A stretch of DNA of 64,000 nucleotides from a virus, in the IMG/VR virus record IMGVR_UViG_3300042507_004023, one strand, 5' to 3'. Position numbers and translations under genes: made by a program. Positions 4,187-30,874 of the stretch are shown here, in pieces. Below the pieces are notes generated by a model that was not told where the DNA came from, did not search any database, and saw nothing but the letters and a program-made list of their open reading frames with translations. Position 1 is the stretch's first letter. Every line of letters starts with the position of its first letter.

Positions 4187-4189
4187 TTT

Positions 4190-5176: not shown

Positions 5177-5902
5177 ATGAAGATTTCGCACGACACGCTG
5201 GCAGTTCTGAAGAATTTCAGCACTATCAACAGCAACCTGATTGTGATGCCAGGCAACACCTTGAAGACTATCAGCCCAACCAAGAATATCATGGTTGAGG
5301 CGGAAGTTCAGGAGGACTTTCCGATAGAGTTCGGTGTTTGGGATTTAAGCAAGTTCCTTGCAACTGTAAGCATGTTCAAGGAGCCGCACTTCGAATTCGA
5401 AAACAACCATGTGGTAATTAAGTCGGAAGGTAGTCGAGCCAAGGTTCGCTACTATTATTCGAATCTTGAGATGCTTGATCCGCAGATTCTGCAAATCATC
5501 AAGAGCGGCAAGAGTTTCAACATGCCAGAATCTGTTGTGGACTTCACTTTAGATTCCAAGGATTTCAACGAGTTGCAGAAAGCGGCAGCAGTTCTTGCTG
5601 CTCCTGACCTTGCTCTTCGCAACTCTGGCGACCGTCTAACCTTGAATGTGTTTGACCGCAAGGACAGCACAGGACACACCTATTCGATTGATGTGGGTGA
5701 GTATGACGGCGATGATTCTTTTGAGTTCATGTTCAAGTCGGAGAATCTAAAGATGATTCCTGGCACTTACGAAGTTAAGGTGTCCGACAAGAAGGTGGCT
5801 CAGTTTGAAACCAAGAATCAGGCGTTGACCTATTGGATTTCTTTGGAAACTGACAGCAAGTTCACCAAGAGCAAGAAGAAGTCCAATGCTGCCGTTGGTT
5901 GA
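5177..5902 (+). CDS. 45: DNA polymerase sliding clamp (T4 gp45 homolog)
   Basis: MKIS..TL.VLKNFSTIN..L...PGN.LKTISP.KNI...FGVWDL..FL; N.KMIPG.Y.V; synteny with 44/62/regA. Confidence 0.95.
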   Translation: MKISHDTLAVLKNFSTINSNLIVMPGNTLKTISPTKNIMVEAEVQEDFPIEFGVWDLSKFLATVSMFKEPHFEFENNHVVIKSEGSRAKVRYYYSNLEMLDPQILQIIKSGKSFNMPESVVDFTLDSKDFNELQKAAAVLAAPDLALRNSGDRLTLNVFDRKDSTGHTYSIDVGEYDGDDSFEFMFKSENLKMIPGTYEVKVSDKKVAQFETKNQALTYWISLETDSKFTKSKKKSNAAVG

Positions 5903-12302: not shown

Positions 12303-13018
12303 GTATCTTCGGCATAAAAAATGCTGACTCAAAACAGATATTAAAAACTCTGCCCTCAGATTGGGCAGATGTTTGTTTTGTAAATCCACCCTGGTGGCGG
12401 ATCGCAAGATATGATGGTAGTCTTGGAACAGAATTAACCTTAGACGAGTATTGCCAGCATTTGATGGAATTTTTTATAGAGGTCAAACGAGTCATAAAAC
12501 CATCAGGATGTGTTTGGCTAACAGGTAATAAAATTAGAAAATCAAATCATCTTCGTTACGCTTCACCAAAGCCTGGTATTGCTAGAACTTTTTCTCGTGT
12601 TTGTGATTATCTTGAAAAAGATGGTTGGACGATTCAGGAGGAAATTGTTTGGCATTTTTCTAAAGGTATGACAGAATCGTTCAAACAAAATGATATAGCA
12701 CCAAACACACATGCTTATATTGGATTGTTGACAAAGAGTAATTACTGCGCTTTTGATCCAAACAAAGTTCATGCAAAATTTAAAGATACAAGTGTTTGGA
12801 CGGATGATGCTCCAAAAGTTTCAAAGTTTTATTCAATATCTCCAAAAATTGCTGAGTCTTGTATTCTAGCCACCTGCCCACCAAGAGGAATTGTGTTAGA
12901 TATCTTTGCAGGAAGCGGAACTTGTGGTATAATCTGTAAGACACACGGACTAAATTATTTGGGTATAGAGATAGATCAAGAAACCGCAAAAATTGCACAG
13001 GATAGGATAACAGATTGA
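12299..13018 (+). CDS. Second beta-class DNA methyltransferase (divergent)
   Basis: VNPPW motif IV, IQEEIVW, SVW, VLDIFAGSGT, GIEID; AT-rich. Confidence 0.8.
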   Translation: MSIFGIKNADSKQILKTLPSDWADVCFVNPPWWRIARYDGSLGTELTLDEYCQHLMEFFIEVKRVIKPSGCVWLTGNKIRKSNHLRYASPKPGIARTFSRVCDYLEKDGWTIQEEIVWHFSKGMTESFKQNDIAPNTHAYIGLLTKSNYCAFDPNKVHAKFKDTSVWTDDAPKVSKFYSISPKIAESCILATCPPRGIVLDIFAGSGTCGIICKTHGLNYLGIEIDQETAKIAQDRITD

Positions 13019-15742: not shown

Positions 15743-16810
15743 ATGAGTGACTTTTTAAAGAGTATGATTCGTGCGTCAGGTAATGAGTTTGCTTCGCTAG
15801 CCGAAGATGGAGTTGAAGGAGATATCACGGGCTTTGTGGATACTGGCTCGTATTCTTTCAACGCTCTTCTGTCAGGCTCGTTGACTGGCGGTATTGCCAA
15901 CAATAAGATTCTAGGTATTGCAGGCGAGTCTGCCACAGGCAAGACCTATTTTGCTTTGGGTATCGCCGCACAGTTCTTGAACGATAATCCCGAAGGAGCG
16001 ATTCTTTACTTTGACTCCGAGCAGGCTGTCACTAGCGACATGATTAAGTCACGCGGACTTGACCCGAATCGCGTTGCCGTATTCCCTGTGGCAACCGTGG
16101 AGCAATTCCGTCATCAGTTGCTGCAAATTATTGATAACTACGGCAAGTTGGATGAGAAGAAGCGTAAGCCGTTCTTTGTGGTGTTGGATTCGCTAGGCAT
16201 GTTGAGCACCAGCAAGGAAACCAACGACACGCTTGAAGGCAAGGAAGTGCGAGACATGACCCGTGCTCAGGTTATCAAGGGTGCGTTCCGTGTGCTTACT
16301 TTGAAGTTGGGTCTGCATAACATTCCTATGATTGTTACGAATCACACCTACGAGGTAGTTGGTGCGTATGTGCCAACCAAGGAGATGGGTGGTGGCACAG
16401 GACTAAAGTATGCGGCTTCAACCATCGTTTATCTTTCCAAGAAGAAGCACAAGGTGGATGACGAAGTGGTTGGCAATATTGTTCATTGCAAACTCTACTA
16501 GGGTCGTCTTACCCGAGAGAATAAGATGATTGATGTTCTTCTAACCTTTGATAAGGGACTTGACCGATACTACGGTTTGGTTGACCTTGCTCTGAAGCAG
16601 GGAGTGTTCAAGAAGGTTTCCACCAAGATTGAATTGCCAAACGGCACAACCGCCTTCGAAAGCCAGATTGTGAAGAATCCAACCAAGTATTTCACCGAAG
16701 AAGTGATGAAGGCTTTGGAAACAGCAGCAGCCAAGGAGTTCAAGTATGGCTCCGACCAGGAAGGAGCAAACACCAATGAACCCTCGGAAACCGTTGAAGC
16801 GGAAGGATGA
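15743..16810 (+). pseudogene. uvsX: RecA-like recombinase UvsX interrupted by one in-frame TAG (16499-16501)
   Basis: [50 protein letters not shown]. The frame continues past the TAG as GRLTRENK...GLDRYYGL, giving 355 codons. Confidence 0.85.
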
Positions 16811-17075
16811 GATAATCGTCTATCCTGAGTTTGAAGCCGCGTTCTTAGGCAACCTGCGTAAGTTTGGTCAGACCATGCCTGTGGCTGTTTATGACTACGA
16901 GAAGTGCTTGGACATTTTGGTGGCGCAGGGTATGGATGTGGTTGATGCCTACGAGTGGTTAGAGGTTAACACTCTAGGCGGCTATCTTGGTGAAGGAACT
17001 CCTGTGCTCGTTAACCGCTGCACTATAGAGGAATTCCACGAGGAGGCAGAACTACATGGCGAAACTTCTGATTAA
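16776..17075 (+). CDS. Conserved phage hypothetical protein
   Basis: ATG after AGGAG; AVYDYEKCLDIL...AYEW.E.NTLGGYLGEGTP family pattern. Confidence 0.75.
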   Translation: MNPRKPLKRKDEIIVYPEFEAAFLGNLRKFGQTMPVAVYDYEKCLDILVAQGMDVVDAYEWLEVNTLGGYLGEGTPVLVNRCTIEEFHEEAELHGETSD

Positions 17076-17745
17076 GTTACCAAGCAGATCGCGTCCGGCT
17101 AAGTTCATGGAGGTATTCAATCTCTATAAGAATATGGCATCCGGCAAGCACGATGTTCGGTTTTTGTGTTCGTTTGATCTTGATGATGCCACTATGAATA
17201 ATCCTGGTATTCGTAACTGGATTGCCAAGCAAGGCGATTCCGTTAAGGCGTTTTGGGGCAATTCAAAAACCAAGATACAAGCCATCAATGCCGACTTGGA
17301 ACACGCAGGAGATTACGATGTTCTCCTGCTAGCATCAGATGATATGATCCCTCAGATGCAAGGCTACGATGATATTATCATGCAGGATATGCAGACCTAC
17401 TATCCTGATGGTGATGGTGTTCTGCACTACAACGATGGTAAGCAGGGAGAACGATTGAATACTTTGTGCATCATGGGCAAGAAGTATTTTGATCGTTTTG
17501 GTTACATCTACAATCCTGAATACATTAGTGTTTATCCTGATAATGAATTTACTGATGTCAGCAGGATTCTAGGAAAAGCCACCTACATCGACAAGGTTAT
17601 CATTCGTCACTTTTGGATAGAGATTGGTGTTGACGCTCTATACATGCGTAACGAGAATCGTGAACTCTACGCTCGTGATGGAGCCTTGTATCAAAAGAGA
17701 AAGGAAGCAAACTTCGGTTTGTCACAACATGCCAACGCCTCCTAA
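17056..17745 (+). CDS. GT-A fold glycosyltransferase-like protein
   Basis: KLPSRSRP.KF, SKTKIQAIN, LLASDDM.P, YNPEY.S...DNEFT. Confidence 0.75.
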   Translation: MAKLLIKLPSRSRPAKFMEVFNLYKNMASGKHDVRFLCSFDLDDATMNNPGIRNWIAKQGDSVKAFWGNSKTKIQAINADLEHAGDYDVLLLASDDMIPQMQGYDDIIMQDMQTYYPDGDGVLHYNDGKQGERLNTLCIMGKKYFDRFGYIYNPEYISVYPDNEFTDVSRILGKATYIDKVIIRHFWIEIGVDALYMRNENRELYARDGALYQKRKEANFGLSQHANAS

Positions 17746-18343
17746 TGAAATCTTACTAAGTGTTCTGATTCTTTCTATTCCCTCTCGTCTTGAGAAGTGT
17801 CTGATTCCAACTTACAATCGTTTGTTGGAGCAGATTGGAAATGAGACCTGCGTTGAGGTTCTAACTCTTGTAGACAACAAGAGCATGAGCATTGGCGAAA
17901 AGCGTCAGGCTTTAATTCAATCTGCTAGAGGTAAGTGGATAGCATTTTTGGATGATGATGACGCGGTATCCGAAGATTATATTGCAACCTTGATTGAAAC
18001 CTTGAAGAATAAGCCTGCCGATGTGATTAGTTTTGAACAGCATTGCTCGGTAAATGGCAGAGAGTTCAAGGTTGATTTCCGTATGGGTAATCCTCACGAA
18101 GGACTTAAGCAGAATCCTGATGGAAGTCTAGGCGATATTAAGCGTCCTCCGTATCACATGTGCGTGTGGGCAACCAAGATCGCAAAGAATATTCCATTCC
18201 GTGCCGTTTCATACGGAGAAGATATTGATTGGTGTATGCGAATGTATCCGTTTGTGACAAGTGAAACTCACCTAGATAAAGTGCTTCACTACTATCAATA
18301 TGATGACAGAACATCGGAAAGTATACAATATGCAAAGCGATAA
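17729..18343 (+). CDS. GT2-like glycosyltransferase
   Basis: LSVLILSIPSR, SIGEKRQ.L...A.GKWIAFLDDDD, GEDIDW. Confidence 0.8.
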   Translation: MPTPPNEILLSVLILSIPSRLEKCLIPTYNRLLEQIGNETCVEVLTLVDNKSMSIGEKRQALIQSARGKWIAFLDDDDAVSEDYIATLIETLKNKPADVISFEQHCSVNGREFKVDFRMGNPHEGLKQNPDGSLGDIKRPPYHMCVWATKIAKNIPFRAVSYGEDIDWCMRMYPFVTSETHLDKVLHYYQYDDRTSESIQYAKR

Positions 18344-19055
18344 GAAGCATCTTCTTTTAAAGTATCCAACTCGTCAGCGTCCATCCAAGTTCATGGCGAA
18401 CTTGAATTCTTACCTTGAGAAATTGTCAGGTAAGCATCAGATAACTTTAGTTGTAAGTATGGACACCGACGACATACTGTGCAACAACGGCGGTATTCAA
18501 AGATTCCTAGACATCAAGAGAAGCGATACGGTTAATGTAATCTACTCTTATGGTGAAAGTAAGGGTAAGATTGCTGCCATCAATCGTGACATCCCGAACA
18601 CTCCTTGGGATATTCTTGTAGCCACAGCGGATGATATGGAACCAATGGAAGACCATTGGGATGATATTATCGTTCAGGATATGTTCCGCGAATTCCCCGA
18701 TCTTTACGGGGCAATCAATTACAATACTGATCCTAGACTAGAAACTAAGATTGACGGCAGACCCGAGGGATGGAAGGGCTTGATTACTCTTCCTGTAATT
18801 GGTAGAAAACTCTACGATAAGTTTGGTTACATCTATCATCCTGATTACATTTCAGAGTCATGTGATGATGAACAAACTATTGTTTACACGCAGTTGGGTG
18901 TTCTAAAGCACATTGACAGAAGACCAATTTTCCACAATTTTAAGCCTTGGCATGATGAGTTGATGATTCGTAACATGCAAATTGGGCAGACCGTTGATAG
19001 AAAAAAGTTTTTGGAAAGAAAAGAAAAGAATTTTGACCTAGAGGTGGCAGTATGA
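18330..19055 (+). CDS. GT-A fold glycosyltransferase-like protein (paralog of 17056-17745)
   Basis: LKYPTRQRP.KF, SKGKIAAIN, VATADDM.P, YHPDY.S...DDEQT. Confidence 0.75.
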   Translation: MQSDKKHLLLKYPTRQRPSKFMANLNSYLEKLSGKHQITLVVSMDTDDILCNNGGIQRFLDIKRSDTVNVIYSYGESKGKIAAINRDIPNTPWDILVATADDMEPMEDHWDDIIVQDMFREFPDLYGAINYNTDPRLETKIDGRPEGWKGLITLPVIGRKLYDKFGYIYHPDYISESCDDEQTIVYTQLGVLKHIDRRPIFHNFKPWHDELMIRNMQIGQTVDRKKFLERKEKNFDLEVAV

Positions 19056-19669
19056 ACTTTTATTCGCAGCAGAGTGAAGATGTTATACTTTGGAAAAAGT
19101 ATTTGAATTATAAGAACGGATTCTTTATTGAACTTGGTGCTATGGACGGAATCAAATATTCCAACACAAAGTTTTTTGAAGATAGTTTGGGTTGGAGAGG
19201 AATACTGATTGAACCTGAAAAGAATCAGTTTCAACGGTTAAGGAGGAATAGACCAAATTGCATCCTTTCCGATTATGCTATTTCGGAAACAGATGGAGAA
19301 GTGGTGTTCAATACTAGAAACGGTGGAGATTCTGGCGGAGGTATTGTTGATACTCACATAGATGAAACTATCCGTGAAGAAGATAATGTTAAACTGATAA
19401 GCAAACCGTTTACAACCTTGCTGAAAGAAGTAGGAAAGCCTGAACGAGTTGATTTGTTTGTGATTGATGTTGAAGGTGGCGAATTAGGAATTCTTAAAAC
19501 TTTTGATTGGTCTATTCCCGTTTATATCATTTGTATTGAAACTCACCCCTCAAACAAGCACTACGAAGAGTGCAAGCAGATTCTAGTAGAAAATGGATTT
19601 GAGTTTGATATGACGGTAGGGATAAACGAAGTTTGGATTAATAAAAACAACAAAAGAGCGGAAGCATGA
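19052..19669 (+). CDS. FkbM-family methyltransferase
   Basis: YSQQSED, FIELGAMDG..YSNT..FE..LGWRGILIEP, IDVEGGE..IL. Confidence 0.9.
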   Translation: MNFYSQQSEDVILWKKYLNYKNGFFIELGAMDGIKYSNTKFFEDSLGWRGILIEPEKNQFQRLRRNRPNCILSDYAISETDGEVVFNTRNGGDSGGGIVDTHIDETIREEDNVKLISKPFTTLLKEVGKPERVDLFVIDVEGGELGILKTFDWSIPVYIICIETHPSNKHYEECKQILVENGFEFDMTVGINEVWINKNNKRAEA

Positions 19670-20325
19670 ATTCTGTTAAACTTAGTATTTGCATTCCTAG
19701 CATTCCTAACAGAATGCGAATGTATCTACAACCTTTATATTCCAAGTTGCTTACTCAGATTGGAGATGCCAAAGATGTGGAAGTTCTGTCTCTAATGGAC
19801 AACAAGATGATGTCTATCGGCAGAAAGAAGTCTCTTCTATTGAGCATGGCAACGGGAAGATATGTGTGCATCATAGACGATGATGACACCGTAGCGGATG
19901 ATTATATTGCAACTTTACGAGAAAAGATTACCGACGATCTAGATGTAGATGTGATTTGCTATAATCAAGAAGCCACAATTCAAGGCAAGACATGGTTGGT
20001 TAAAACAAGTCTGACCCACAATCAAGTTCATCCTTTTGACCAGTTGGCTGTAGATCAAAACGGCAATACAATTCCTTGTAAGCGACCACCGTGGCAATGG
20101 TGTTTATGGAAGCGAGAGATTGCTCAGGCGGTAGCCTTTGGCGATTCTAATTGGGCAGAAGATGCAGCATTTACTCTTGACGCTTGCAAAAAGGCAAAGA
20201 CAGAACTTGTTATTGATAAAGTTATGTGTTACTATAGTTGGTCTCCAACAGTAACTGAAACACAAAGACCGCAGAATCCCGTATCTGTGGAAAACATGGA
20301 AAGAGTGAGGATTAACAATGGCTGA
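19666..20325 (+). CDS. GT2-like glycosyltransferase (paralog of 17729-18343)
   Basis: LSICIPSIP.R, MSIGRKK.LL...ATGRYVCIIDDDD, AEDAAF. Confidence 0.8.
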   Translation: MNSVKLSICIPSIPNRMRMYLQPLYSKLLTQIGDAKDVEVLSLMDNKMMSIGRKKSLLLSMATGRYVCIIDDDDTVADDYIATLREKITDDLDVDVICYNQEATIQGKTWLVKTSLTHNQVHPFDQLAVDQNGNTIPCKRPPWQWCLWKREIAQAVAFGDSNWAEDAAFTLDACKKAKTELVIDKVMCYYSWSPTVTETQRPQNPVSVENMERVRINNG

Positions 20326-21277
20326 AAATGGTGTGATTATTTACATGTCCCGAATGCGGGATGTTCCTCTTTTGTATCGCAGTCTTAGTATGCTTGGATG
20401 GAATTTCAAGCATATCAGAGAATATCCTATTGTGATTTTTCACGATGATATTGATAAGGGAACCATTTCCAATCTTATGGTATCTCTACATCAGAACTTG
20501 GGATTCATTCCAAATCTGAAGTTTGAGCGTTTGGATTTTGTAATGCCTGAATGGGTTTCAGAAGATCCAGCAAAGTATACTGTTCCTTTGGATCAGGCTT
20601 GGATGGGATATCGCCACATGTGCCGTTATCATTCGGGTGGTATTTACCGCGATCCTCGTCTTCTACAATACGATTATTATTGGAGATTAGATTCCGATTC
20701 TTACATCTATTCACCGATCAATTACGATCCGTTTGAATACATGGCAAAGAATGATAAAGAATATGCTTTCATGGCAACCGAAGACGGAGAAGTTCCAAGC
20801 GTTGTTGAAGGACTTTGGGATGAAACTGAGCGGTTTATGAAGACTCACAATATTCCTATGACTAAAGACCTTGAAGACAGCATGGTTGACGGAAAGTGGA
20901 GTTGTCGGTTGTTCTATACAAACTTTGAAATTGCCAAGTTCTCGTTCTTCAGAAGCGAAAAGTATATGGCATACTTTGACCAGTTAGATCAGACAGGCAA
21001 CATCTTCTATAAGAGATGGGGCGATGCTCCAATCCATTGGCTAGGTGTAAAGATGTTGTTAGACCCAAGCAAGGTTTGGGCGGTTAACGATATCACCTAT
21101 CAGCACAATGCTTGGATACGCAACATGAGTGCTTTGCCCAACAAGGAAATCCCCGAGAAGATTATGAACTTGGTTGATGGAAATCTTCAACATCGTTACA
21201 GCCGTCTAGAAAGAATCACTTTTGGTTTGAATAGATATAGAGCAGGCGGTCCTGATTGGTTGAATTGGGGCGAGTGA
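20318..21277 (+). CDS. KRE2/MNT1-like alpha-1,2-mannosyltransferase (GT15-like)
   Basis: GYRHMCRYHSG, YDYYWRLD, FYTNFEIAK..FFRS..Y..YF..LD..G.IFYKRWGDAP: the Kre2-family signature. Confidence 0.85.
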   Translation: MAENGVIIYMSRMRDVPLLYRSLSMLGWNFKHIREYPIVIFHDDIDKGTISNLMVSLHQNLGFIPNLKFERLDFVMPEWVSEDPAKYTVPLDQAWMGYRHMCRYHSGGIYRDPRLLQYDYYWRLDSDSYIYSPINYDPFEYMAKNDKEYAFMATEDGEVPSVVEGLWDETERFMKTHNIPMTKDLEDSMVDGKWSCRLFYTNFEIAKFSFFRSEKYMAYFDQLDQTGNIFYKRWGDAPIHWLGVKMLLDPSKVWAVNDITYQHNAWIRNMSALPNKEIPEKIMNLVDGNLQHRYSRLERITFGLNRYRAGGPDWLNWGE

Positions 21278-21292
21278 GAAAGGATTTATATT

Positions 21293-22186
21293 ATGGAAAA
21301 CGCTGCAATTGTATACATGACCCGAAAGAACGATCTGTGGATTTTTAAGCACAGCATCAATTTCTTGTATTCTAATTTCAACAAGGATGCAAACTACCCT
21401 GTAGTTGTTTTCTATGATGATTTGAGCAAGGCAGATATAGCAAATCTGCTAACAGAGTTTAGTCTTTCCTTTGGGTTCCTACCAAACATAAAGTTTGAAA
21501 AGTTGGAATTCTCTCTGCCTGAAGGAATATCTGAAGATCCGGCTCTCTATACTCTTCCTCTCACTCAATTCCGAATGGGATATCGTCATATGTGTCGTTT
21601 CTATGGCGGTCAAATCTTTAATCATCCCGCTTTGGCAAAGTATAAGTGGTATATGAGATTGGATTCTGATTCGTTTATCATGTCCAAAATCACCCGTGAT
21701 CCATTTGAGGTCATGCGAGTTAATGGATATCAATACGCTTTCATGGAACGAGAAGAATACGATGCTCCTTGGGCTTGCGAAGGCTTGTGGGATAGCACAA
21801 AGAAGTTTATTGAAGCAAACAAATCCACAGTTCTAAATTCAGAATTTGAATGGAACATGGAAGTCTACAATACTAATTTTGAAATTGTAGACATGGATTT
21901 CTTCCGTGACAACAACTATCAAAACTATTTCAATCATATTGAAGAAACGGGCAACATCTTCTATAAGCGTTGGGGAGATCATTGCATTCGTTGGTTGGGC
22001 ATCAAGATGTTTATGAATCCCGAAAGAGTTTGGTGTCTACGCGATTTCTGCTATCAGCATGGCGGAGATATTAAGAATATAGAACTCGTTGATATGGATT
22101 GTGTTGCTCGTGAACCTGAACCGTTTAAGGGAGGAATGGTTAAGGCTTTAGAGCAAAGAGTTCAGGGTCTTGCAGTTAATGGATAA
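21293..22186 (+). CDS. Second KRE2/MNT1-like mannosyltransferase (GT15-like)
   Basis: GYRHMCRFYGG, YKWYMRLDSD, YNTNFEI.D..FF, GNIFYKRWGD. Confidence 0.82.
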   Translation: MENAAIVYMTRKNDLWIFKHSINFLYSNFNKDANYPVVVFYDDLSKADIANLLTEFSLSFGFLPNIKFEKLEFSLPEGISEDPALYTLPLTQFRMGYRHMCRFYGGQIFNHPALAKYKWYMRLDSDSFIMSKITRDPFEVMRVNGYQYAFMEREEYDAPWACEGLWDSTKKFIEANKSTVLNSEFEWNMEVYNTNFEIVDMDFFRDNNYQNYFNHIEETGNIFYKRWGDHCIRWLGIKMFMNPERVWCLRDFCYQHGGDIKNIELVDMDCVAREPEPFKGGMVKALEQRVQGLAVNG

Positions 22187-22189
22187 TCC

Positions 22190-22999
22190 ATGAATCTTGT
22201 ATTAGGCAGCACATCTCAACTGTCTCGTTATTTTCCTGATAACTACGCAAAGGTTTCAGCAAGAGAATTGGATTTAGATGCTCTAACCAAAACTAGGTGG
22301 GATGCAGTATACATTTGTTTTGCCGAGCAAAGAACTTATCTAGCAAATGCCATAGACGAGAATACTCGTAATATGTTTTGGAATACTAATGTAGATAAGA
22401 CTCTACAAATTATAGAGAGACTGCAAGAAGTAACAGATAAGATTGTGTATTACTCTACAGCGGAACTGTGGAACAACACATCAGGCCCTGTGAAGATTAC
22501 AGACCCTGTTTCTTTTCACAAGAACAATTACACCGAGTCAAAGTGGCATATAACGCAAATTCTCAGAGACAAGGAAAAGTATCCTAAAGTTTCCATTCTC
22601 TATCCTTTCAACTTCAACAGCATTCACCGAGGCGATCAATACTTGTTTGGTAAGATTTTTAAATCCATCGTAAACAAGCAGCCCGTCACCATAGGGGATG
22701 TTCAGTATTACCGAGAACTGTTGCATCCTCAAATGGTGGTTGATGCTAGCATAAACGCTACAGCAGGGGTGGATGAGATTGTTGGTTCGGGTAGAGTGGT
22801 TTATGTGAAAGATTTCATAGAATTACTTTACATGTATTCTGGATTGAGTTATAATGATATGGTTACAGAAGATAATACCAGAGAGTCAATCTATCGGAAA
22901 AACATTTTCTACTCTGCTGTGCGAAACGAACAGTATGATGTTGATCGTTTGATTGATCTTACCATAAGCGAATTAACAAACCCGGCGGTGACACAATGA
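22190..22999 (+). CDS. Divergent GDP-mannose 4,6-dehydratase-like SDR
   Basis: STAE and YTESK catalytic residues; FNFNSIHRG...FGKI and IGDVQYYRELLH correspond to Gmd FNHESPRRG...RKI and LGNLDAKRDWGH. Confidence 0.6.
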   Translation: MNLVLGSTSQLSRYFPDNYAKVSARELDLDALTKTRWDAVYICFAEQRTYLANAIDENTRNMFWNTNVDKTLQIIERLQEVTDKIVYYSTAELWNNTSGPVKITDPVSFHKNNYTESKWHITQILRDKEKYPKVSILYPFNFNSIHRGDQYLFGKIFKSIVNKQPVTIGDVQYYRELLHPQMVVDASINATAGVDEIVGSGRVVYVKDFIELLYMYSGLSYNDMVTEDNTRESIYRKNIFYSAVRNEQYDVDRLIDLTISELTNPAVTQ

Positions 23000-24165
23000 A
23001 TAAACCAATAAATCTAGTTCAAGACACTATAGATCAACAAGACATATCATCTTTAATCTCTTGGCTTAACACTAATCCTCGTTTAACGAAAGCCACTAGA
23101 ACCGTTGAGTTTGAGCAGGAGTGGAGCAATTGGTTGGGTTGCAAGTATTCGGTATTTGTAAACTCGGGATCGTCTGCAAACTTGGCAATATTCTATGCTT
23201 TGATTGTAAGCAATCGTTTAAAGAACAAGAAGGTTGTGTTCCCATGTTTGTCTTGGGTGACAACAGTTGCTCCTGCAATTCAGTTGGGGTTAGAGCCGAT
23301 TCTTTGCGGAACCGACAGAGCCAACTTGGGAATTGATGTTGAGGAGTTTGAGGAAATTTGCAAGCGAGAAAATCCTGCTGCTCTAATGGTAGTTCATGCT
23401 TTAGGATTTCCAAACGACATGAAGCGCATTCAAGAAATCTGTGAGAAGTATGGAGTGATACTTCTTGAGGATTCCTGTGAGAGTGTTGGAACAACCGTGG
23501 ATGGCAAGAAAACAGGAACTTTGAGTCTTGCTGCGTCTTTCAGCACTTACTATGGGCATCACTTCTCTACCATAGAAGGCGGGTTGATTTCAACCGATGA
23601 TTACGAACTGTATAATATTCTAAAGAGCATTCGTTCTCACGGATGGTCTAGAGATTTGGATGAAGTTTCTCGTATCAATCTTCAACTGAAGTATGGTATT
23701 GATGACTTCCGTAACTTCTACACCTTCTACTATCCAGGATTCAATCTTCGCTCAACCGATCTGCAAGCGTATATCGGTATACAGCAACTCAAGAAACTTG
23801 ATCGGTTCTGTGATAAGCGATGGAATAATCTTAAACTATACGATAAGTATATCGTAAATCCACATTGGAAGATTTCTGTGGATCAGTTTGAGTATGTTTC
23901 AAACTTTGCCTATCCCATCATTCACCCAAGAGTGCCTGAGATTGTTAAGAAACTAGCCAAAAATTCTGTGGAGTGTCGTCCACTAATTGCGGGTAGTATT
24001 TCCCGACAGCCGTTCTTCTACGAGAGATACGGTTCCAAGAAGCACCCGTTTGCGGATGAGATACACGATTACGGAATGTATGTTCCCAACAATCCTGATA
24101 TGACCGAAGATCAAATTAAGTTTGTATCTGACATAGTAAACACATTTACAGTAAGCAAGGATTAA
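22996..24165 (+). CDS. DegT/DnrJ-fold PLP enzyme, ColD-like 3-dehydratase
   Basis: FVNSGSSANL, EDSCES.G, SFSTYYGHHFSTIEGG (His in place of the Schiff-base Lys), GFNLRSTDLQA. Confidence 0.8.
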   Translation: MNKPINLVQDTIDQQDISSLISWLNTNPRLTKATRTVEFEQEWSNWLGCKYSVFVNSGSSANLAIFYALIVSNRLKNKKVVFPCLSWVTTVAPAIQLGLEPILCGTDRANLGIDVEEFEEICKRENPAALMVVHALGFPNDMKRIQEICEKYGVILLEDSCESVGTTVDGKKTGTLSLAASFSTYYGHHFSTIEGGLISTDDYELYNILKSIRSHGWSRDLDEVSRINLQLKYGIDDFRNFYTFYYPGFNLRSTDLQAYIGIQQLKKLDRFCDKRWNNLKLYDKYIVNPHWKISVDQFEYVSNFAYPIIHPRVPEIVKKLAKNSVECRPLIAGSISRQPFFYERYGSKKHPFADEIHDYGMYVPNNPDMTEDQIKFVSDIVNTFTVSKD

Positions 24166-24168
24166 TCC

Positions 24169-25176
24169 ATGAAAATTGATAAAGTCGTCTTTAGTTGCTC
24201 GGAAACATTCAGTCCATTTTGGAACATACAATCTAAGGTATGGAAGACTAAGTTTGGAGTGGAGCCGGTATGTCTTTTGTTTGGAGATAAAAAGAGTTGT
24301 AAGGTATCTGAAGAATACGGAGAAGTTATAGAACAGAAGTATGATCCTGATCTTCCACAAATCATTCAAATACAATTTTCTAAGTTTTATCATCCAAAGG
24401 TTGAACCAGAAACAACATGGATAATCGGTGACATAGATCAAATTCCTTTGCAGACCGAATATTTTTTAAATGATTTGCCGAATGTTCCTGACGATGCGTA
24501 TGCTCATTTGAACTATACTCTTACTGCTCAGATGCGTCCAGGTATTCGTCCTGATGGCATGCCAGGCATTTCGCCCGACACTTTCTTGAAGGTTGGTGCA
24601 TATGTTAATGGCGGCTATGATCTTCCTGGTCATTATCATGTGGCTAAGGGTAAATTGTATGAAAATCTATTCTTCCGTGATAAGAGTTTCAAAGAAGTTG
24701 TGCAGGGAGTTATTGATGCTCGTAGACACGGTATGGTTACTGAGGATGCAAGAAACACTCTCAATAAAAGTATTCATGGTGATTATTGGGTCGCTGAAGA
24801 AGGATACACATCCGAACAGATTTGGTATGGGTTGAAGTCTAAGAGAATCACTGGTGGTTTCTTCGGTAAAGAATATCACATCTTTGATGGTAAGATTGAT
24901 CGTGTTGGTAATGGAACTTGGTTCGATCCAAATGGATGGACAGAAACCGACATAAAGAATATGGCAGAAAGCAATAAAACTACACCAGAAAATATTGTGC
25001 AATACCTGAAGCAAAACAATATAAAGAAAAGAAGCATGCAATGGACAGGTAAAGAATATCTTTATGATGTTGAAAAATTAAAGAACAAGGGTTACATGGA
25101 TATACATTGTTATCGTCCATATCACGAACAAGAGGGGCCTATGATGCGTATTCTTGAAATCGCTGGCATGATCTAA
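24169..25176 (+). CDS. Hypothetical protein, possibly glycosyltransferase-like
   Basis: MKIDKVV.SC...FW, IIGDIDQIPL (DxD), DIHC.RPY; located inside the glycan island. Confidence 0.6.
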   Translation: MKIDKVVFSCSETFSPFWNIQSKVWKTKFGVEPVCLLFGDKKSCKVSEEYGEVIEQKYDPDLPQIIQIQFSKFYHPKVEPETTWIIGDIDQIPLQTEYFLNDLPNVPDDAYAHLNYTLTAQMRPGIRPDGMPGISPDTFLKVGAYVNGGYDLPGHYHVAKGKLYENLFFRDKSFKEVVQGVIDARRHGMVTEDARNTLNKSIHGDYWVAEEGYTSEQIWYGLKSKRITGGFFGKEYHIFDGKIDRVGNGTWFDPNGWTETDIKNMAESNKTTPENIVQYLKQNNIKKRSMQWTGKEYLYDVEKLKNKGYMDIHCYRPYHEQEGPMMRILEIAGMI

Positions 25177-26588
25177 TGAATTTGTTTTGCATATCAGGAA
25201 GTTCTGGTGTAGGCAAAACCACAATATCTAAGATCATTCAAAGTATTCTTGGGTCAAAAGATTGTGTTTGTCTAAGTGGTGATGATCTTCACAAGTGGGA
25301 AAGAGGCGATCCCATTTGGAAGACCATTACACATTTGAATCCTGATGCAAATAATTTAGAATTGGGTTATTCTCATCTTGTTGAATTAAAGAATGGTAAT
25401 CCTATACAAAGAAGCCACTATAATCACGATACAGGAAAATTTGATTCTTCTGTCAGAATTGATTCTAAACCGTATATCATTTACGAAGGGCTTCATGCTC
25501 TTTATCACAAACCTACTGTTCAAATTTCAGATTTAAACATTTATGTGGATACTGATGAAGATTTAAAAGTCGAATGGAAAGTTAAACGCGATACAACTAA
25601 AAGAGGCCATACTAAAGCCGAGGTTCTAGAAACCATAAAGCGCAGAAAAGATGATGAAGACCGATTCATAAAGCCACAGAAACAGAATGCCGATATTGTA
25701 GTTAAGTTTAGTAAAGATCAGCACTCTTCCATCAAACTGTTATACTTTTGCACTACTGACAAGGGGCAAAAATTCATGGAACTCGTTAAGGGGTTCTACG
25801 AATCAACGAATAACTTTTTACAAATTTGTAAATGGTTGGGATTAGATCCCGCTTTAGTTCAAGGCAGAGGCGGAAATGTTTCTGTCAAGTCGGATGGCGG
25901 AATGATTATCAAATCATCAGGCGCAAAGATGAGTGATATAAATTTGTATCATGGATTTTGTGTTTGTGATATTCGAAAGGAACCTTTACCAAAATTTGCA
26001 GACGAAAAACATTACAATCTGTATATCAAAGGATGTAAAAAGATAGGGGACAGTAATCCTTCTATGGAAACCGGATTCCATATCTCCATTCCAAATAAAG
26101 TTGTTATCCATACCCATCCAATACACCTTAATTCCATACTTTGTAGTTTGGAAGGAGAAGAAGTATTGAAAACTCTTTTCAAAGATATTGCGTATCAATT
26201 TGTTCCTTACACCACACCAGGATATGAATTGGTAAATCGTATAACACCAAATCTGATAAACACCAACATCATTTTTTTGCAAAATCATGGGCTGATAGTC
26301 GGAGCAGAAACTCACGAAGAAGCAATAGAACTAACCGAAAAAATTAACAACCGATGTAAACGCTGGTTGGTTACTCATGTTGACAGTTTCTTGGATTACG
26401 AGGATTCTAAAATAAATATGCCGCTTTTTCCAGATGCCGCAGTTTTTCTAAACGAAATGTCTTCAACAAACAACTACATACTACATCTGATGACTGGAGC
26501 CTGCTTGACTCCAAACTTTTTGAGTTCTGAAGAAGTGAGAAAGTTAAACAGTATGTCGTCGGAACAATTCAGAAAGGCTTTAGTATGA
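25176..26588 (+). CDS. Uridine kinase/phosphoribulokinase-like domain fused to a class II aldolase domain
   Basis: N-terminus: GSSGVGKTT, GDDLHKW, YNHDTG, IYEGLH, KVKRD..KRG. C-terminus: QGRGGNVSVK, PSMETGFH, HTHP, LQNHGL. Confidence 0.85.
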   Translation: MNLFCISGSSGVGKTTISKIIQSILGSKDCVCLSGDDLHKWERGDPIWKTITHLNPDANNLELGYSHLVELKNGNPIQRSHYNHDTGKFDSSVRIDSKPYIIYEGLHALYHKPTVQISDLNIYVDTDEDLKVEWKVKRDTTKRGHTKAEVLETIKRRKDDEDRFIKPQKQNADIVVKFSKDQHSSIKLLYFCTTDKGQKFMELVKGFYESTNNFLQICKWLGLDPALVQGRGGNVSVKSDGGMIIKSSGAKMSDINLYHGFCVCDIRKEPLPKFADEKHYNLYIKGCKKIGDSNPSMETGFHISIPNKVVIHTHPIHLNSILCSLEGEEVLKTLFKDIAYQFVPYTTPGYELVNRITPNLINTNIIFLQNHGLIVGAETHEEAIELTEKINNRCKRWLVTHVDSFLDYEDSKINMPLFPDAAVFLNEMSSTNNYILHLMTGACLTPNFLSSEEVRKLNSMSSEQFRKALV

Positions 26589-27409
26589 AGATAATTGTGC
26601 CAATGGCAGGAACAGGCAATCGTTTTGTCGAGAAGGGATATGCAGACCCTAAGCCCCTTATTCGCGTAAACGGTAAACGAATCATAGAATACATTCTAGA
26701 GATGTTTGATCCAAACGATGAAATTGTATTCATCTGTAACGATACCCACCTAGCAACAACTGATATGCGAGATGTGCTTCTATCTCTGAAGCCAAACGCC
26801 ACGATTGTATCCATGCCTCAACATAAGTTGGGCCCTGTGTGGACGGTTAAGGCAGTATACGAACACATCAAAGATGATGAAGAAGTAATTGTTTCTTACT
26901 GCGACAATCCTCACCTTTGGGACATGGAGCATTTTAAGGAACATGTTAACTACTACAAGATGGATGGTTGCATTCTTACTCACTCTGGATTTCATCCACA
27001 CACCTTGGCTCAAACAAAGATGGCGTTTGTTAAAGATGTGCCGGGAACTCCGTATATTACTGAGATTAAAGAAAAGGCGTGTTACACCAACGATCCGATG
27101 AATGAACATGCTTCTACCGGCATGTATTACTTTAGACGGGGTGCAGATATCAAGAAATATTTTGATCTTGCTATGGAGAGGGGAATTCAGTATAATGGCG
27201 AATTCTATGTTACTTTGGTCTACAATCTGCTGGTTCAAGACGGATTGAAAGTTGGTTATTACGACACTCCGTTTGTTACCGTGTTTGGAACTCCTGAAGA
27301 AGTGGAAAATTTTGAGGCTTGGGCAACCATAGTTAAAGGTAAGCAGGTAAAGTCGGTGGATGATCTAATTAACTGCTATCTGTATTGGGACTCGTATCAC
27401 AATGACTAA
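26585..27409 (+). CDS. Sugar-phosphate nucleotidyltransferase family protein
   Basis: IVPMAGTGNRF...GY..PKPLI.V.GK, SYCD, ASTGMYYF, NGEFYV..VYN, FGTPEE. Confidence 0.85.
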   Translation: MKIIVPMAGTGNRFVEKGYADPKPLIRVNGKRIIEYILEMFDPNDEIVFICNDTHLATTDMRDVLLSLKPNATIVSMPQHKLGPVWTVKAVYEHIKDDEEVIVSYCDNPHLWDMEHFKEHVNYYKMDGCILTHSGFHPHTLAQTKMAFVKDVPGTPYITEIKEKACYTNDPMNEHASTGMYYFRRGADIKKYFDLAMERGIQYNGEFYVTLVYNLLVQDGLKVGYYDTPFVTVFGTPEEVENFEAWATIVKGKQVKSVDDLINCYLYWDSYHND

Positions 27410-27704
27410 AATCATATTTGTTGACATTGATGAAACGATTTGCATTACTCCTGACCATCCTCGGGAGTATAAGAAGTCTAAGCCTATTCTTGAAAACATA
27501 GAAAAGATTAATCGCTTATATGACGAGGGAAACACCATCATCTATTGGACGGCTAGAGGCAGTCGAAGTGGCATAGACTGGTATGATCTAACCAAGCAGC
27601 AGTTGGAAGATTGGGGTGCAAAGCATCACGATTTGAGATGCGATAAACCTTACTATGATCTATTCATTGAAGACAAAAGTTTAAGAATAGAGGAATTATC
27701 GTGA
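27402..27704 (+). CDS. HAD-like capsule-biosynthesis phosphatase
   Basis: FVDIDETIC, IYWTARG, KPYYDLFIEDK. Confidence 0.85.
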   Translation: MTKIIFVDIDETICITPDHPREYKKSKPILENIEKINRLYDEGNTIIYWTARGSRSGIDWYDLTKQQLEDWGAKHHDLRCDKPYYDLFIEDKSLRIEELS

Positions 27705-28168
27705 TTTACATTTCACACCGAGGTAATCTTGACGGAGTTATTCCCGAGCGTGAAAACTCATTGGATTACATTCAAGAAGCAATTGATGCAGGCTATGATG
27801 TAGAGATAGATCTGCGTATGAAAAACGAACAACCCCATCTAGGTCACGATTACGCTCAGTATCCTGTGACCGAGGAGTGGCTTTGGCAACGCCGTGAATA
27901 TCTTTGGATTCATGTCAAGGAATACGCCGCTCTCAAATGGATTTTTCAAAGATCTTTAATGCAGCCTGTTCGATATTTTTGTCACGAATCTGATCGGTAT
28001 ACACTTGTAAGTAATGGTTGGATTTGGTCGCACGATTTAACAAATTCTATGATTTCCAAGTGCATTATTCCTCTTCTCTCTAAAGAATCTGTAGCCGCTT
28101 ATAATCAAACCGGATTTGGAGCCGTTTGCTCGGATTTTATCTACGATTGTCAGAAAAAGTTTGCTTGA
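27701..28168 (+). CDS. PLC/GDPD-like phosphodiesterase family protein
   Basis: ISHRGNL.G..PERENS..YI..AI..GYDVEID, LGHD, WIH.K, VCSD. Confidence 0.8.
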   Translation: MIYISHRGNLDGVIPERENSLDYIQEAIDAGYDVEIDLRMKNEQPHLGHDYAQYPVTEEWLWQRREYLWIHVKEYAALKWIFQRSLMQPVRYFCHESDRYTLVSNGWIWSHDLTNSMISKCIIPLLSKESVAAYNQTGFGAVCSDFIYDCQKKFA

Positions 28169-28192
28169 CTTTTCGGGGATTTGGGGTATACT
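28165..28192 (+). promoter_or_regulatory. Sigma70-like early promoter for gp41
   Basis: TTGACT-16 nt-TATACT. Confidence 0.6.
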
Positions 28193-28213
28193 GATTGTTC
28201 GAGAACCCATCTG

Positions 28214-29638
28214 ATGTCTGCTGACAGAACAGAAATTTTAATTCTTCGTTCCCTGCTCCACGATGAGGAGTTTGGTAGAAAAGTTCTACCGTTCTTGAAG
28301 CCCGAGTATTTCAATGAGCGTGACGAGCGGGTTATCTACGATTGTGTGAGCGAGTTTTACACTCAATACAACGCCAAGCCAAGTGTTGAAAGTCTGCTTA
28401 TCGACTTGGGAAAGCGCGATGATTTAAGCGAAACCGAGTTCAAATCTATTCGAGAAATCATCAAGAGTTTTAAGACACATGATGCTCCCGACACACAATG
28501 GTTGCTAGACAACACAGAAAACTTCTGTAAAGAAAAGGCACTCTATAATGGCATCATGGAATCCATTCAGATTATTGATGGAAAGTCCAAAGACAAAACT
28601 AAAACTGCTATTCCAAGCATTCTTTCTACTGCTCTTGCAGTTAGTTTTGATTCTCATATCGGTCACGATTTCATTGGTGATGCAGACAAGCGATACGACT
28701 TCTATCACACCGTAGAGAAGCGTATTCCGTTTGATCTTGACCTGATGAACAAAATTACCAACAATGGAACTCCATACAAAACTCTGAATGTGTGTCTCGC
28801 GGGCACGGGCGTGGGTAAGTCTTTGTTCCTCTGTCACCATGCTGCAAATTGTCTGATGCAAGGTAAGAATGTGCTGTATATAACTTGCGAAATGGCGGAA
28901 GAGCGTATTGCTGAACGCATTGATGCCAATCTGATGGATACTAGTTTAGATGATCTGAAGGCTTTGCCCAAGGATATCTACGACCGCAAAATGAAGCGTA
29001 TTATGGAACAGACTACGGGGAAACTGATTATCAAAGAGTATCCGACAGCGAGTGCTTCAGTAATGCACTTCAAGCATCTGTTGGATGAACTGCGTTTGAA
29101 GAAGAACTTTGTTCCTGAAATTATTTTTATCGACTACTTAAACATTTGTGCATCTTCTCGTATGAAACAGAGTGCTACAGTAAACTCATATACATTCATC
29201 AAGGCTATTGCAGAGGAACTGCGCGGTCTTGCGGTGGAGACTGGTGTTCCCATCTTTACGGCAACTCAAACTAATCGTTCTGGCTTCTCTAGCACGGATG
29301 TTGAGTTGACAGATACTAGTGAATCGTTCGGTCTACCACAAACCGCAGATTTCATGTTTGCTTTGGTTTCAACCGAAGAACTTCAGGGTCTTGGTCAGAT
29401 TATGGTGAAGCAGTTGAAGAACCGTTATGCTGATCCTGCATCTAACCGACGCTTCGTTGTCGGAATTGACCGCAGCAAAATGAAACTGTTTGACTTGGAT
29501 GAATCGGCTCAACGCGGAATTATTAATATTACCGAGTCCAAGGATACGGATGATGAAGACTCGGGAGAATTTAAAACTTTCCGTGAACGCATGGGTGAGA
29601 AGTTTAATAAAAAGAGAGATTTTGCTGATTGGTCTTGA
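28214..29638 (+). CDS. 41: Replicative DNA helicase (T4 gp41)
   Basis: VLPFLKPEYF, LAGTGVGKS, ITCEMAEERIAERID, IKEYPT, IDYLNI, AEELRGLAVE, SESFGLP.TAD, KQLKNRY. Confidence 0.96.
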   Translation: MSADRTEILILRSLLHDEEFGRKVLPFLKPEYFNERDERVIYDCVSEFYTQYNAKPSVESLLIDLGKRDDLSETEFKSIREIIKSFKTHDAPDTQWLLDNTENFCKEKALYNGIMESIQIIDGKSKDKTKTAIPSILSTALAVSFDSHIGHDFIGDADKRYDFYHTVEKRIPFDLDLMNKITNNGTPYKTLNVCLAGTGVGKSLFLCHHAANCLMQGKNVLYITCEMAEERIAERIDANLMDTSLDDLKALPKDIYDRKMKRIMEQTTGKLIIKEYPTASASVMHFKHLLDELRLKKNFVPEIIFIDYLNICASSRMKQSATVNSYTFIKAIAEELRGLAVETGVPIFTATQTNRSGFSSTDVELTDTSESFGLPQTADFMFALVSTEELQGLGQIMVKQLKNRYADPASNRRFVVGIDRSKMKLFDLDESAQRGIINITESKDTDDEDSGEFKTFRERMGEKFNKKRDFADWS

Positions 29639-30367: not shown

Positions 30368-30874
30368 TTGAAGGTTCTCCTCCTCAACGCTAGCGAGGAA
30401 GTCTTAAATGTGATTGATTGGAAGCGAGCGGTTAACCTGCTTTGTTCAGGTCGAGCCGAGAAGCCCTACGGTCACGAAGACTACTATCGCATCCCTACCC
30501 CACGAGGTCACTATCAACTCCCAACCGCTATTGTGTTGGTGGAGTATGTAAATTTGCCGTATCGGGTAAAGGGAGCCACCCGTAAGGGGGTATTCCGTCG
30601 TGACAAGTATGAATGTCAGTATTGTGGGTGCTCGCTGAACGCAGCCAACGGAACAGTAGACCATGTAATGCCGGTAAGCCGTGGTGGTAAGTTTGAATGG
30701 AAGAATCTTGTGGCTTCTTGCCGTAAGTGTAACTACAAGAAGGCTAACCGAACCCCGCAGGAGGCTAAGATGCCCTTAGCCAAGCCCCCAATCGTGCCTA
30801 ACAGGAAGATGATTGTGATGACAATTATTGACCATTTGGGCCCCAAAACTTGGTCTAGGTGGATTGAGGAATAG
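30368..30874 (+). CDS. HNH endonuclease (McrA-like)
   Basis: VLLLNASEE.L, RDKYECQYCG, TVDHVMPVSRGG..EW.NLVASC.KCN..K.NRTP. Confidence 0.9.
   Translation: MKVLLLNASEEVLNVIDWKRAVNLLCSGRAEKPYGHEDYYRIPTPRGHYQLPTAIVLVEYVNLPYRVKGATRKGVFRRDKYECQYCGCSLNAANGTVDHVMPVSRGGKFEWKNLVASCRKCNYKKANRTPQEAKMPLAKPPIVPNRKMIVMTIIDHLGPKTWSRWIEE

Follow-up and report, generated by a model that had tools for sequence, protein, structure and literature searches.

Large clusters of glycan genes have been known in aquatic T4-like phages for about twenty years, and their function has never been demonstrated. In the chlorovirus PBCV-1, the enzymes A064R, A111/114R and A075L, together with the viral GMD/GMER, build a methylated, deoxyhexose-rich capsid glycan in the cytoplasm, independently of the host. 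In the exosporium collagens of Bacillus and Clostridioides spores (BclA, with rhamnose and anthrose, and BclA3, with SgtA), Thr-rich Gly-X-Thr repeats are glycosylated and capped by methylated deoxy or amino sugars. In mycobacteriophages, the virion is reportedly decorated by phage-encoded transferases (Freeman et al. 2023, as cited in PMC12801897). The marine cyanomyovirus S-SCSM2R has 13 glycosyltransferases, and the glycan clusters of marine cyanomyoviruses have been interpreted as modifying the host cell surface (PMC12801897). Here we analyse a comparable locus in a 64,000-nucleotide stretch of viral DNA (IMG/VR record IMGVR_UViG_3300042507_004023; the whole stretch is called the window below), in which an island of genes, lettered A to N and all on the + strand, occupies positions 17056-28168 between uvsX and gp41. 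We read the island as an old, vertically kept and internally recombining locus for assembling a glycan in the host cytoplasm, belonging to a clade of freshwater T4-like phages, and give this reading an even chance of being right. The most likely acceptor would be the phage's own virion proteins, above all a Gly-Ala-Thr collagen-like tail fibre, a proposal that we place a little short of even.

The source is a T4-like myovirus whose gp43 polymerase (13015-15552) is about 50% identical to that of marine cyanomyoviruses. Like the marine T4-like phages P-SSM2, S-SCSM1/S-SCSM2R and ACG-2014f, it has several glycosyltransferases clustered with enzymes for nucleoside diphosphate (NDP) sugars, and the function is likewise unproven. 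It differs from them in that the island sits at the uvsX-gp41 junction, that the GT15, A/C-family and J-family proteins of the island are found in no or almost no isolate genome, and that K-L-M-N in its fused form is absent from 50,697 GenBank phage records. Since clusters with many transferases were already known in the marine phages, the system is less unprecedented than a first-pass annotation of this DNA had implied: uncharacterised glycan clusters in aquatic T4-like phages are known, and what is new is this variant, with GT15 and K-L-M-N. That annotation had counted fifteen tightly coupled genes between uvsX and gp41, which agrees with the 14 intact + strand genes of 17056-28168 plus the small open reading frame (ORF) orf109 that precedes A. 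In the ORF list, neighbouring island genes either overlap, by 1-44 nt, or leave gaps of 3-15 nt. The junction is made up as follows.

15743-16810: uvsX, the left flank of the island
16746-17075, + strand: orf109, a small conserved ORF between uvsX and A, with no family match
17056-17745, + strand: A, a glycosyltransferase of GT-A fold, paralog of C (AlphaFold model and Foldseek)
17729-18343, + strand: B, a GT2 glycosyltransferase, paralog of E (PF00535, 1.7e-8)
18300-19055, + strand: C, a further protein of the A family, sharing 40% identity with A
19052-19669, + strand: D, an FkbM S-adenosylmethionine (SAM) methyltransferase, a variable cassette gene (PF05050, 7.3e-18; TIGR01444, 7.6e-12)
19666-20325, + strand: E, a GT2 glycosyltransferase, paralog of B (PF00535, 3.1e-6)
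20318-21277, + strand: F, a GT15 (Kre2/Mnt1-type) enzyme (PF01793, 6.2e-49, 167.6 bits)
21293-22186, + strand: G, a second GT15 enzyme, of the G subtype, which varies between relatives (PF01793, 4.4e-41, 141.8 bits)
22190-22999, + strand: H, a short, divergent extended SDR, Gmd/Rmd-like, 269 residues (weak GalE match, 5.5e-6)
22996-24165, + strand: I, a ColD-type GDP-4-keto-6-deoxymannose 3-dehydratase dependent on pyridoxal or pyridoxamine phosphate (PLP/PMP) (PF01041, 5.9e-63)
24169-25176, + strand: J, a DxD (GDIDQ) transferase of GT-A fold, GT6/GT8-like, of a mainly viral family
25176-26588, + strand: K, a fusion of a PRK-type P-loop kinase (residues 1-190) with a class II aldolase/epimerase-type domain (215-400)
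26585-27409, + strand: L, a sugar-phosphate nucleotidyltransferase (PF12804, 5.5e-11; PDB 4evw, 1.8e-11)
27402-27704, + strand: M, a HAD-type phosphatase of 100 residues with a DIDET (DxDxT) motif (TIGR01689, capsule biosynthesis phosphatase, 3.3e-5)
27701-28168, + strand: N, a protein of 155 residues from a mainly viral family, with GDPD-like N-terminal motifs (motif basis)
28181-29638: gp41, the right flank of the island

Domain and structure matches uphold most of the families assigned at first pass (GT2, GT15, a further DxD protein, FkbM, ColD-like, kinase-aldolase, nucleotidyltransferase, and an fcl gene elsewhere), and the enzyme set supports the view that the system makes a multi-sugar, methylated glycan far beyond the DNA glucosylation of T4. 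Sequence or fold identifies seven soluble transferases of the GT-A class in the island, namely A, B, C, E, F, G and J.

F and G are clear members of the family of the fungal Kre2/Mnt1 alpha-1,2-mannosyltransferases, with the catalytic-domain motifs kept. Both exceed the gathering cut-off of PF01793 (25 bits), and the GT15 match to the sequence of the Kre2p structure 1s4n is at 1.1e-33. F keeps the motifs YRHMCR, RLDSDS, NFEI and RWGDAPIH. The set YRHMCR, YWR(V/L)(E/D)xD, NFEI and RWGDxxxH is complete in F, and G has Arg for the final His; the G-type proteins read RWGDHCIRW, with Arg where Kre2p and the F type have His. This His is the Mn ligand in Kre2p, and a His three residues earlier in the G-type proteins might substitute for it. 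Unlike the fungal enzymes, F and G have no type II membrane anchor or stem and start at the catalytic domain (maximum 19-residue hydropathy 0.61 and 0.85), G is without the ligand His, and the phage proteins form a single clade of their own (100/99), with F and G subtypes and a G-type subclade at 100/99. F is nearest to the copy in L001 (97%) and G, by tree and by identities, to that in L006 (L- and G-numbers denote the contigs or loci used for comparison). The phage GT15 proteins are 37-40% identical to proteins of Methanoperedens and Parcubacteria, against 32% to one fungal protein; the tree does not separate a eukaryotic from a prokaryotic source, because its single fungal sequence lies on a very long branch. 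A pattern-seeded search of one genome from each of 185,579 prokaryotic species found GT15 in 14 loci only, mostly from archaea, Verrucomicrobiales and Candidate Phyla Radiation (CPR) bacteria. This locus brings GT15 enzymes into phages; there were none among the 50,697 GenBank phage records. No paper pairing 'bacteriophage' with 'glycosyltransferase family 15' was found in the literature. Fusions of GT15 with FkbM (P0208) and with a methyltransferase also exist. Judged from their sequences, F and G would add mannose from GDP-mannose.

The start of B at 17729 was picked by comparison with relatives. In the alignment of B and E, R20, D75-D78 and E164-D165 are invariant (an R...DDDD...ED pattern). 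A has no match in Pfam or NCBIfam, and profile-profile comparison gave a probability below 1% for A/C or J being distant relatives of B and E; since that comparison was negative, fold models were used to place A and J. The AlphaFold model of A (pLDDT 90.8) retrieved the WrtF fucosyltransferase, SpsA, TarP/TarS and PcManGT in Foldseek (TMq 0.53-0.62, prob 1.0), and D41/D44 and D95-D96 are invariant in the alignment of A and C. C is called GT-A from its homology to A, and is fused to a GT2 domain in some relatives; the fusion of 530 residues in L001 has PF13704/PF00535 in its C-terminal half. J has no Pfam match. Its model (pLDDT 71) found alpha-1,3-GalT, GlyE, LgtC and CpsY in Foldseek, with a weaker TMq of 0.3-0.41 against GT6, GT8 and GT31 structures; its neighbours in the Atlas are GT8, GT6 and Nucleotid_trans clusters, and the GDxD motif is invariant in its alignment. 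The J of the window has an insertion of about 30 residues (about 258-287) that is missing from all aligned relatives.

As to the sugars, I matches ColD entries (ColD/WbdK, 2gms) over its full length at 6.5e-60 to 1.2e-58, against 1.8e-38 for E1/RfbH and 1e-31 at best for aminotransferases. A His-His pair replaces the Schiff-base Lys: GHHFSTIEGG of I aligns with SHHIATMEGG of ColD (H188), and the entry for the ColD H188N mutant reads SNH at the position matching the His of I. A further enzyme of NDP-sugar metabolism lies outside the island.

1496-2401, + strand: an Fcl/ColC-like GDP-sugar epimerase-reductase (NF047922, 1.2e-61; PF01370, 1e-38)

This gene matches the GDP-L-fucose synthase model NF047922 over its full length, below the cut-off, and possibly encodes the last step to GDP-fucose or GDP-colitose. 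A Gmd passing the TIGR01472 cut-off is seen in the relatives' genomes, and its position for this phage, taken from synteny, is about 4 kb to the left of the window start, near the Fcl-like gene. The Gmd of the relatives, the Fcl-like gene and I together suggest that every step between GDP-mannose and a GDP-3,6-dideoxyhexose is covered, in a route by which the phage Gmd would turn GDP-mannose of the host into GDP-4-keto-6-deoxymannose, I would remove the 3-OH of this intermediate, and either H or the Fcl-like enzyme would then reduce it to a colitose-like GDP-3,6-dideoxyhexose. The full-length ColD match with its diagnostic His, the Fcl/ColC-like gene in the window and the Gmd in relatives all recall the GDP-colitose pathway of E. 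coli O55 and Yersinia, with the difference that the phage genes for Gmd, I and the Fcl-like enzyme are not contiguous.

The choice between H and the Fcl-like enzyme as the finisher decides the stereochemistry of the product. H has no Pfam match, and it fails the Gmd models PF16363/TIGR01472 and the Gmd length of about 340 residues. Its profile gave weak matches in the PDB to Gmd (E 0.006) and to GDP-6-deoxy-D-mannose reductase (E 0.077); it retains STAE and YxxxK, and the Gly motif is degenerate, with GSTSQLS instead of GxxGxxG. H is therefore better described as a candidate Gmd/Rmd-like reductase than as a canonical Gmd, and is probably the 4-keto reductase partner of I, with which it travels in L006. 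Since it is Gmd/Rmd-like and not Fcl-like, the product may be a D-series 3,6-dideoxyhexose rather than L-colitose. D is probably a sugar O-methylase, and would methylate the terminal sugar; it is absent from L001, L006 and L011 and present in L003 and L008. Among the enzymes named at first pass, M is less firmly a HAD phosphatase than had been said (an E-value of only 3e-5, with the DxDxT motif), and 'Gmd-like' for H and 'phosphodiesterase' for N were over-called. The island enzymes are candidate tools for the synthesis of rare 3,6-dideoxy and methylated sugars.

It is worth adding that the cluster of the cultured Synechococcus phage ACG-2014f (KJ019141.1) has genes for Gmd, an SDR, an unannotated ColD-type enzyme, GT11, GT6 and GT25. 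The ColD-type gene (L222, 8968-10161), annotated as 'hypothetical protein', sits between the SDR and GT11 genes, has the His-His motif and is 33% identical to I; its presence suggests that a cultured cyanophage probably encodes a GDP-3,6-dideoxyhexose pathway.

The right-hand part of the island is the cassette K-L-M-N. K matches PF00485 (8e-41), PF00596 (9e-21) and the cyanobacterial PRK 9qko (2.8e-37), and E298, H312, H314 and H371, corresponding to the metal ligands and catalytic Glu, are invariant in its alignment. More than 377 full-length homologs of K, all unnamed, come from metagenomes. L has weak matches to GlmU, RmlA and related models, and follows K in phages and in cellular genomes. 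M matches PF25109 at 0.024, and its place between L and N is fixed in many contigs. The motifs HRG, EN, ExD and HD are all invariant in N; its Atlas neighbours are viral hypothetical proteins, with GDPD as a lead at 0.86, and it matches PF03009 at E 0.064 over 44 positions and the PDB, by profile, at E 0.3, with a length of 155 residues against about 240 for the TIM barrel.

The four genes keep a fixed order, which recurs in viral contigs of no relation to this phage, in many cases preceded immediately by a J homolog. In the viral contigs L204-L221, which carry K-L-M-N, there was no match to uvsX, gp41, GT15 or the A/C family within the fetched flanks; an example is L207, a locus from a 297,894-bp contig, with the cassette at 2318-5247 of the locus. 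From this distribution K-L-M-N looks like a mobile four-gene module spread over phage lineages. The K fusion was not found among the 50,697 GenBank phage records, the genomes of isolated phages are essentially devoid of both J and the K fusion, and no description combining phosphoribulokinase, class II aldolase, nucleotidyltransferase and glycosyltransferase was found in the literature. In cellular genomes a kinase, an aldolase-type gene and one or two nucleotidyltransferases adjoin, and K-L linkage is seen in Bdellovibrionota, Rickettsiales (Candidatus Megaera), Cytophagales and DPANN archaea. In L103 (6750-8888, a Cytophagales metagenome-assembled genome, MAG) and in L119 (6765-8873, a Bdellovibrionales MAG), the K-like kinase makes up the C-terminal portion of a protein some 700 residues long, with 7-8 hydrophobic segments and no Pfam match in the N-terminal 410 residues or so. 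J was considered as a counterpart of this bacterial membrane domain and rejected, there being no BLASTP similarity between J and the domain with its 7-8 hydrophobic segments. The locus also brings to light a four-gene cassette that is widespread.

Ketose phosphates are the usual substrates of PRK-type kinases and of enzymes of the class II aldolase family, which makes a nucleotide-activated unit derived from a pentulose or pentose the best guess, by analogy, for the product of K-L-M-N. K would phosphorylate and rearrange a ketose phosphate, M would remove one phosphate, and L would activate the resulting compound with a nucleoside triphosphate. J, whose gene immediately precedes that of K in most loci, probably uses this product and would transfer the unit, and N would trim it or process a phosphodiester. 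The synthesis of UDP-arabinose in phages proceeds by isomerase, kinase, phosphatase and nucleotidyltransferase steps (PMC13326640). K-L-M has the same enzyme classes as NDP-heptose synthesis (GmhA-HddA-GmhB-HddC) and the UDP-arabinofuranose synthesis of the phages RB69 and DLP3 (PMC13326640), and is likewise a fixed operon with a transferase alongside. However, it has a PRK-type kinase in place of GHMP/APH and a class II aldolase-type domain in place of the SIS isomerase, and K-L-M-N carries the GDPD-like gene in addition.

The history of the island was examined in 80 viral contigs fetched by gp41 and 19 fetched by GT15. In about 60 relatives with gp41 57-65% identical, the gap between uvsX and gp41 is only 9-740 bp, that is, an empty site, which confirms that the island was inserted within the replication genes. 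In the clade that bears GT15 (gp41 identity 46-99%), the junction holds 8-17 kb, and L036 has 6 kb of different genes there. The core order A-B-C-E-F...J-K-L-(M)-N is kept in L017, L016 and L008, with gp41 identities of 46-69% and all ORFs intact. Sequence identity in A, L, M and N roughly follows that of gp41, which suggests vertical descent of the flanks of the island. Intact genes in an order kept down to 46% gp41 identity make this an old insertion, and not the decaying remains of an O-antigen locus recently captured from a host, the possibility that had been named as the one that would undo the proposal.

The interior is more changeable. L001, L002 and L004 have gp41 and gp43 99% identical to those of the window, and a different island interior. 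DNA of the L001 type is colinear with the window only up to 18917; the 1.4 kb of 18917-20318 (the end of C, with D and E) are replaced in L001 by 5.2 kb that encode the C-GT2 fusion, an RfbH-type 3-dehydrase (471 bits, above the NCBIfam cut-off), an SDR resembling dTDP-glucose dehydratase, a split transketolase-like thiamine enzyme (206 + 158 residues) and another SDR. This alternative cassette, at 4201-9999 of L001, is also found in L006, L011 and L014, and its product might be a branched-chain 3,6-dideoxyhexose. The H-I pair of the window is replaced by an FkbM gene in L001, whose J and K are only 60-65% identical to those of the window, while G, H and I are nearest to those of L006 (94-96%). 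Both alternative cassettes encode 3-deoxygenation chemistry. On this comparison at least two slots for exchange lie between the conserved transferases of the locus, much as in serotype loci. A near-identity DNA search with the island found nothing in GenBank phages. The locus is an unusually clean case, with a fixed site and an empty-site control, a conserved core, exchangeable cassettes and a plausible acceptor in the same genome.

That the glycan would be assembled in the cytoplasm is indicated by what the island lacks. No transmembrane segment was found in the 14 island proteins of the window, nor in 146 island ORFs of 10 relatives, and 10 island variants contain no initiating phosphoglycosyl transferase, flippase (Wzx), polymerase (Wzy), ABC transporter or ligase. 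The earlier observation that flippase, polymerase and hydroxymethylase are missing is borne out. The gene content fits the same logic as that of PBCV-1, with soluble GT-A enzymes, a methyltransferase and enzymes of Gmd and Fcl type; PBCV-1 differs in being a eukaryotic virus with N-linked glycans on its major capsid protein, and there is no sequence kinship beyond the fold.

A candidate acceptor was sought by a count of the motif G-x-T-[G/A] over every large ORF in the window. The following stand out, with counts compared with 200 shuffles each; the three after the fibre are further large or adjacent proteins of the late region.

54883-60114, - strand: tail fibre of 1743 residues, the candidate acceptor (collagen PF01391, 1.1e-14; tail collar PF07484, 5e-5); 52 motifs against 6.8 expected, reached in 0/200 shuffles
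42631-46467: 19 motifs against 4.5 expected, 0/200 shuffles
60335-63880, - strand: 9 motifs against 1.0 expected, 0/200 shuffles
46483-47178: 4 motifs against 0.7 expected, 1/200 shuffles

No replication or island enzyme has more than one such motif, and most have none. In the tail fibre, Gly-Ala-Thr runs occupy residues 45-98, 198-248 and 281-310, with Thr at the Y position of 17/18 and 13/17 triplets in the repeat runs. The spore collagens provide a parallel, in that the fibre has Thr-rich Gly-X-Thr repeats and one relative (G002) has a GT2 enzyme of 397 residues with a helical-repeat tail, flanked by ORFs that are fibre-like as judged from sequence alone. The parallel is limited, in that the island transferases are not SgtA homologs and the island is not beside the fibre gene. 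A separate GT2 of this kind, placed among the structural genes, would start the glycan chain, and cassette swapping among near-identical phages would give each lineage a different fibre glycan. The first-pass annotation had favoured cytoplasmic protein glycosylation; the soluble enzymes, the collagen-like fibre and the GT2 of the relative speak for this circumstantially, the acceptor itself being the part that we infer. If virion glycosylation is true, a trait of mycobacteriophages and giant viruses would extend to abundant freshwater myoviruses, with a bearing on host recognition, grazing and particle stability.

A second collagen-like protein, of 376 residues (40928-42058), consists of charged G-E/P/D-K/R triplets and is not Thr-rich. 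Its gene adjoins ThyX (40231-40941) and is kept in island-bearing and island-less relatives.

Several observations weigh against the assembly of a glycan for the virion. The island lies in the replication block and not beside structural genes, with the fibre about 27 kb downstream, whereas the virion glycosyltransferases of mycobacteriophages reportedly adjoin capsid and tail genes. The late-promoter motif TATAAATA is at chance level in the window and absent inside the island (scans for sigma-70 promoters and terminators were also at chance level, so that the timing of expression is not indicated). Island-less relatives, whose records are fragmentary, also encode collagen-like proteins, and collagen was rejected as a marker of the island, there being no strict co-occurrence. 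The G-x-T enrichment may merely reflect the repeat structure of the fibre. Bacterial O-antigen loci typically involve 3,6-dideoxyhexoses and FkbM enzymes. The product proposed for K-L-M-N is putative, as are the functions given to H, M and N, and the family of N is not established statistically by relaxed Pfam, PDB profile search or Atlas.

The most serious competitor follows from this O-antigen character. The substrates of the soluble enzymes would be intermediates linked to undecaprenyl or to the core, on the inner side of the host membrane, and the flippase, ABC transporter and ligase of the host would export the product, so that the lipopolysaccharide (LPS), O-antigen or capsule of the infected cell is altered, for example by 3,6-dideoxyhexose or methyl-mannose caps, to block superinfection or to keep progeny off debris, as has long been proposed for the 'LPS' clusters of cyanomyoviruses. 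The gene content is O-antigen-like (3-dehydratases of ColD and RfbH type, 4,6-dehydratases, GT2 and FkbM), and the cassette-wise exchange resembles that of serotype loci. Moreover, the fusion of bacterial K-kinase homologs to a domain with 7-8 transmembrane segments suggests that the pathway is membrane-coupled in cells, and comparable clusters of marine cyanomyoviruses, of which ACG-2014f has one, have been read in this way (PMC12801897). Against this, K in phages no longer has the membrane domain, the island variants lack the initiating, export, polymerising and ligating functions and the transmembrane segments listed above, and a core that is stable in phages probably infecting different strains is awkward for a lipid-linked acceptor of one host. 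None of these points is decisive, and we regard envelope remodelling as possible, though on the unlikely side.

The island might instead yield some other soluble product, such as an unattached oligosaccharide, a glycolipid or glycosylated small molecule, or a modified cytoplasmic protein of the host, to an end that has nothing to do with the virion surface. All of its enzymes are cytoplasmic, and the occurrence of K-L-M-N alone, in unrelated viral contigs with neither GT15 nor the A/C family, implies that it has a role apart from the other island genes; the cassette is also present in genomes of Bdellovibrionota, Rickettsiales and DPANN. Seven transferases conserved in a fixed order, however, point to an oligosaccharide assembled in sequence on a specific acceptor, neither a transporter nor a regulatory gene lies alongside, and there is no positive evidence for any particular small molecule, which makes such a product improbable.

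It is very unlikely that the oligosaccharide is built on a modified base to protect the DNA from restriction, as in T4, RB69 and the 5mYOX-linked phages, since no ThyA-family hydroxymethylase or 5hoC synthase (PF00303) was found in one 98%-complete and two partial relatives (on which the whole-genome statements rest, with working positive controls), only ThyX, no Tet/JBP match (PF12851) appeared in a search made without a positive control, and the DNA methylases of the window are of N6/N4 and not C5 type, so that the known routes of DNA glycosylation are here without their first step. In other systems, GT-A enzymes with R...DDD...ED motifs do glycosylate phage DNA, and B and E carry this pattern; the known clusters adjoin an enzyme that makes the hydroxyl acceptor (bioRxiv 10.1101/2023.12.21.572611), and this one does not. 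The logic of K-L-M resembles phage UDP-arabinose synthesis (PMC13326640), Mom-like, DUF1599 and two DNA methylase genes lie upstream of gp43 in the window, and the island adjoins gp43, uvsX and gp41; yet the uvsX-gp41 junction looks like an insertion site, with no hint of a functional link, and seven transferases with a methylase exceed any known DNA glycan.

Returning to glycosylation of the virion, a more far-reaching version can be put forward, which we consider doubtful as a whole. In this proposal K-L-M-N, with J, is an undescribed pathway to an activated unit derived from a ketose or pentose, shared by aquatic phages in their hundreds and by certain bacteria that are predators or live inside cells, and is joined here with GT15 mannosyltransferases peculiar to phages and with exchangeable 3,6-dideoxyhexose cassettes to give a lineage-specific, methyl-capped O-glycan on Thr-collagen tail fibres. 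The island would then be a phage 'serotype' locus under diversifying selection.

Some features of the surrounding DNA remain to be described. The G+C content of the island, 0.37-0.40, dips slightly below the value of about 0.43 in its flanks. orf109 is 86-97% identical in L001, L006, L011 and L014, and since its 5' end overlaps the 3' end of uvsX, its true start may be further downstream. psbA was not found in the relatives. uvsX is broken by a single in-frame TAG at 16499-16501. The corresponding codon is AAG (Lys) in 11/11 relatives examined, three of them about 99% identical there, so that the stop comes from one A-to-T change confined to this assembly, be it mutation or sequencing error. 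A gene of the SAM lyase family lies near the start of the window (649-1284), and an HNH endonuclease gene (30368-30874) about 0.7 kb downstream of gp41.

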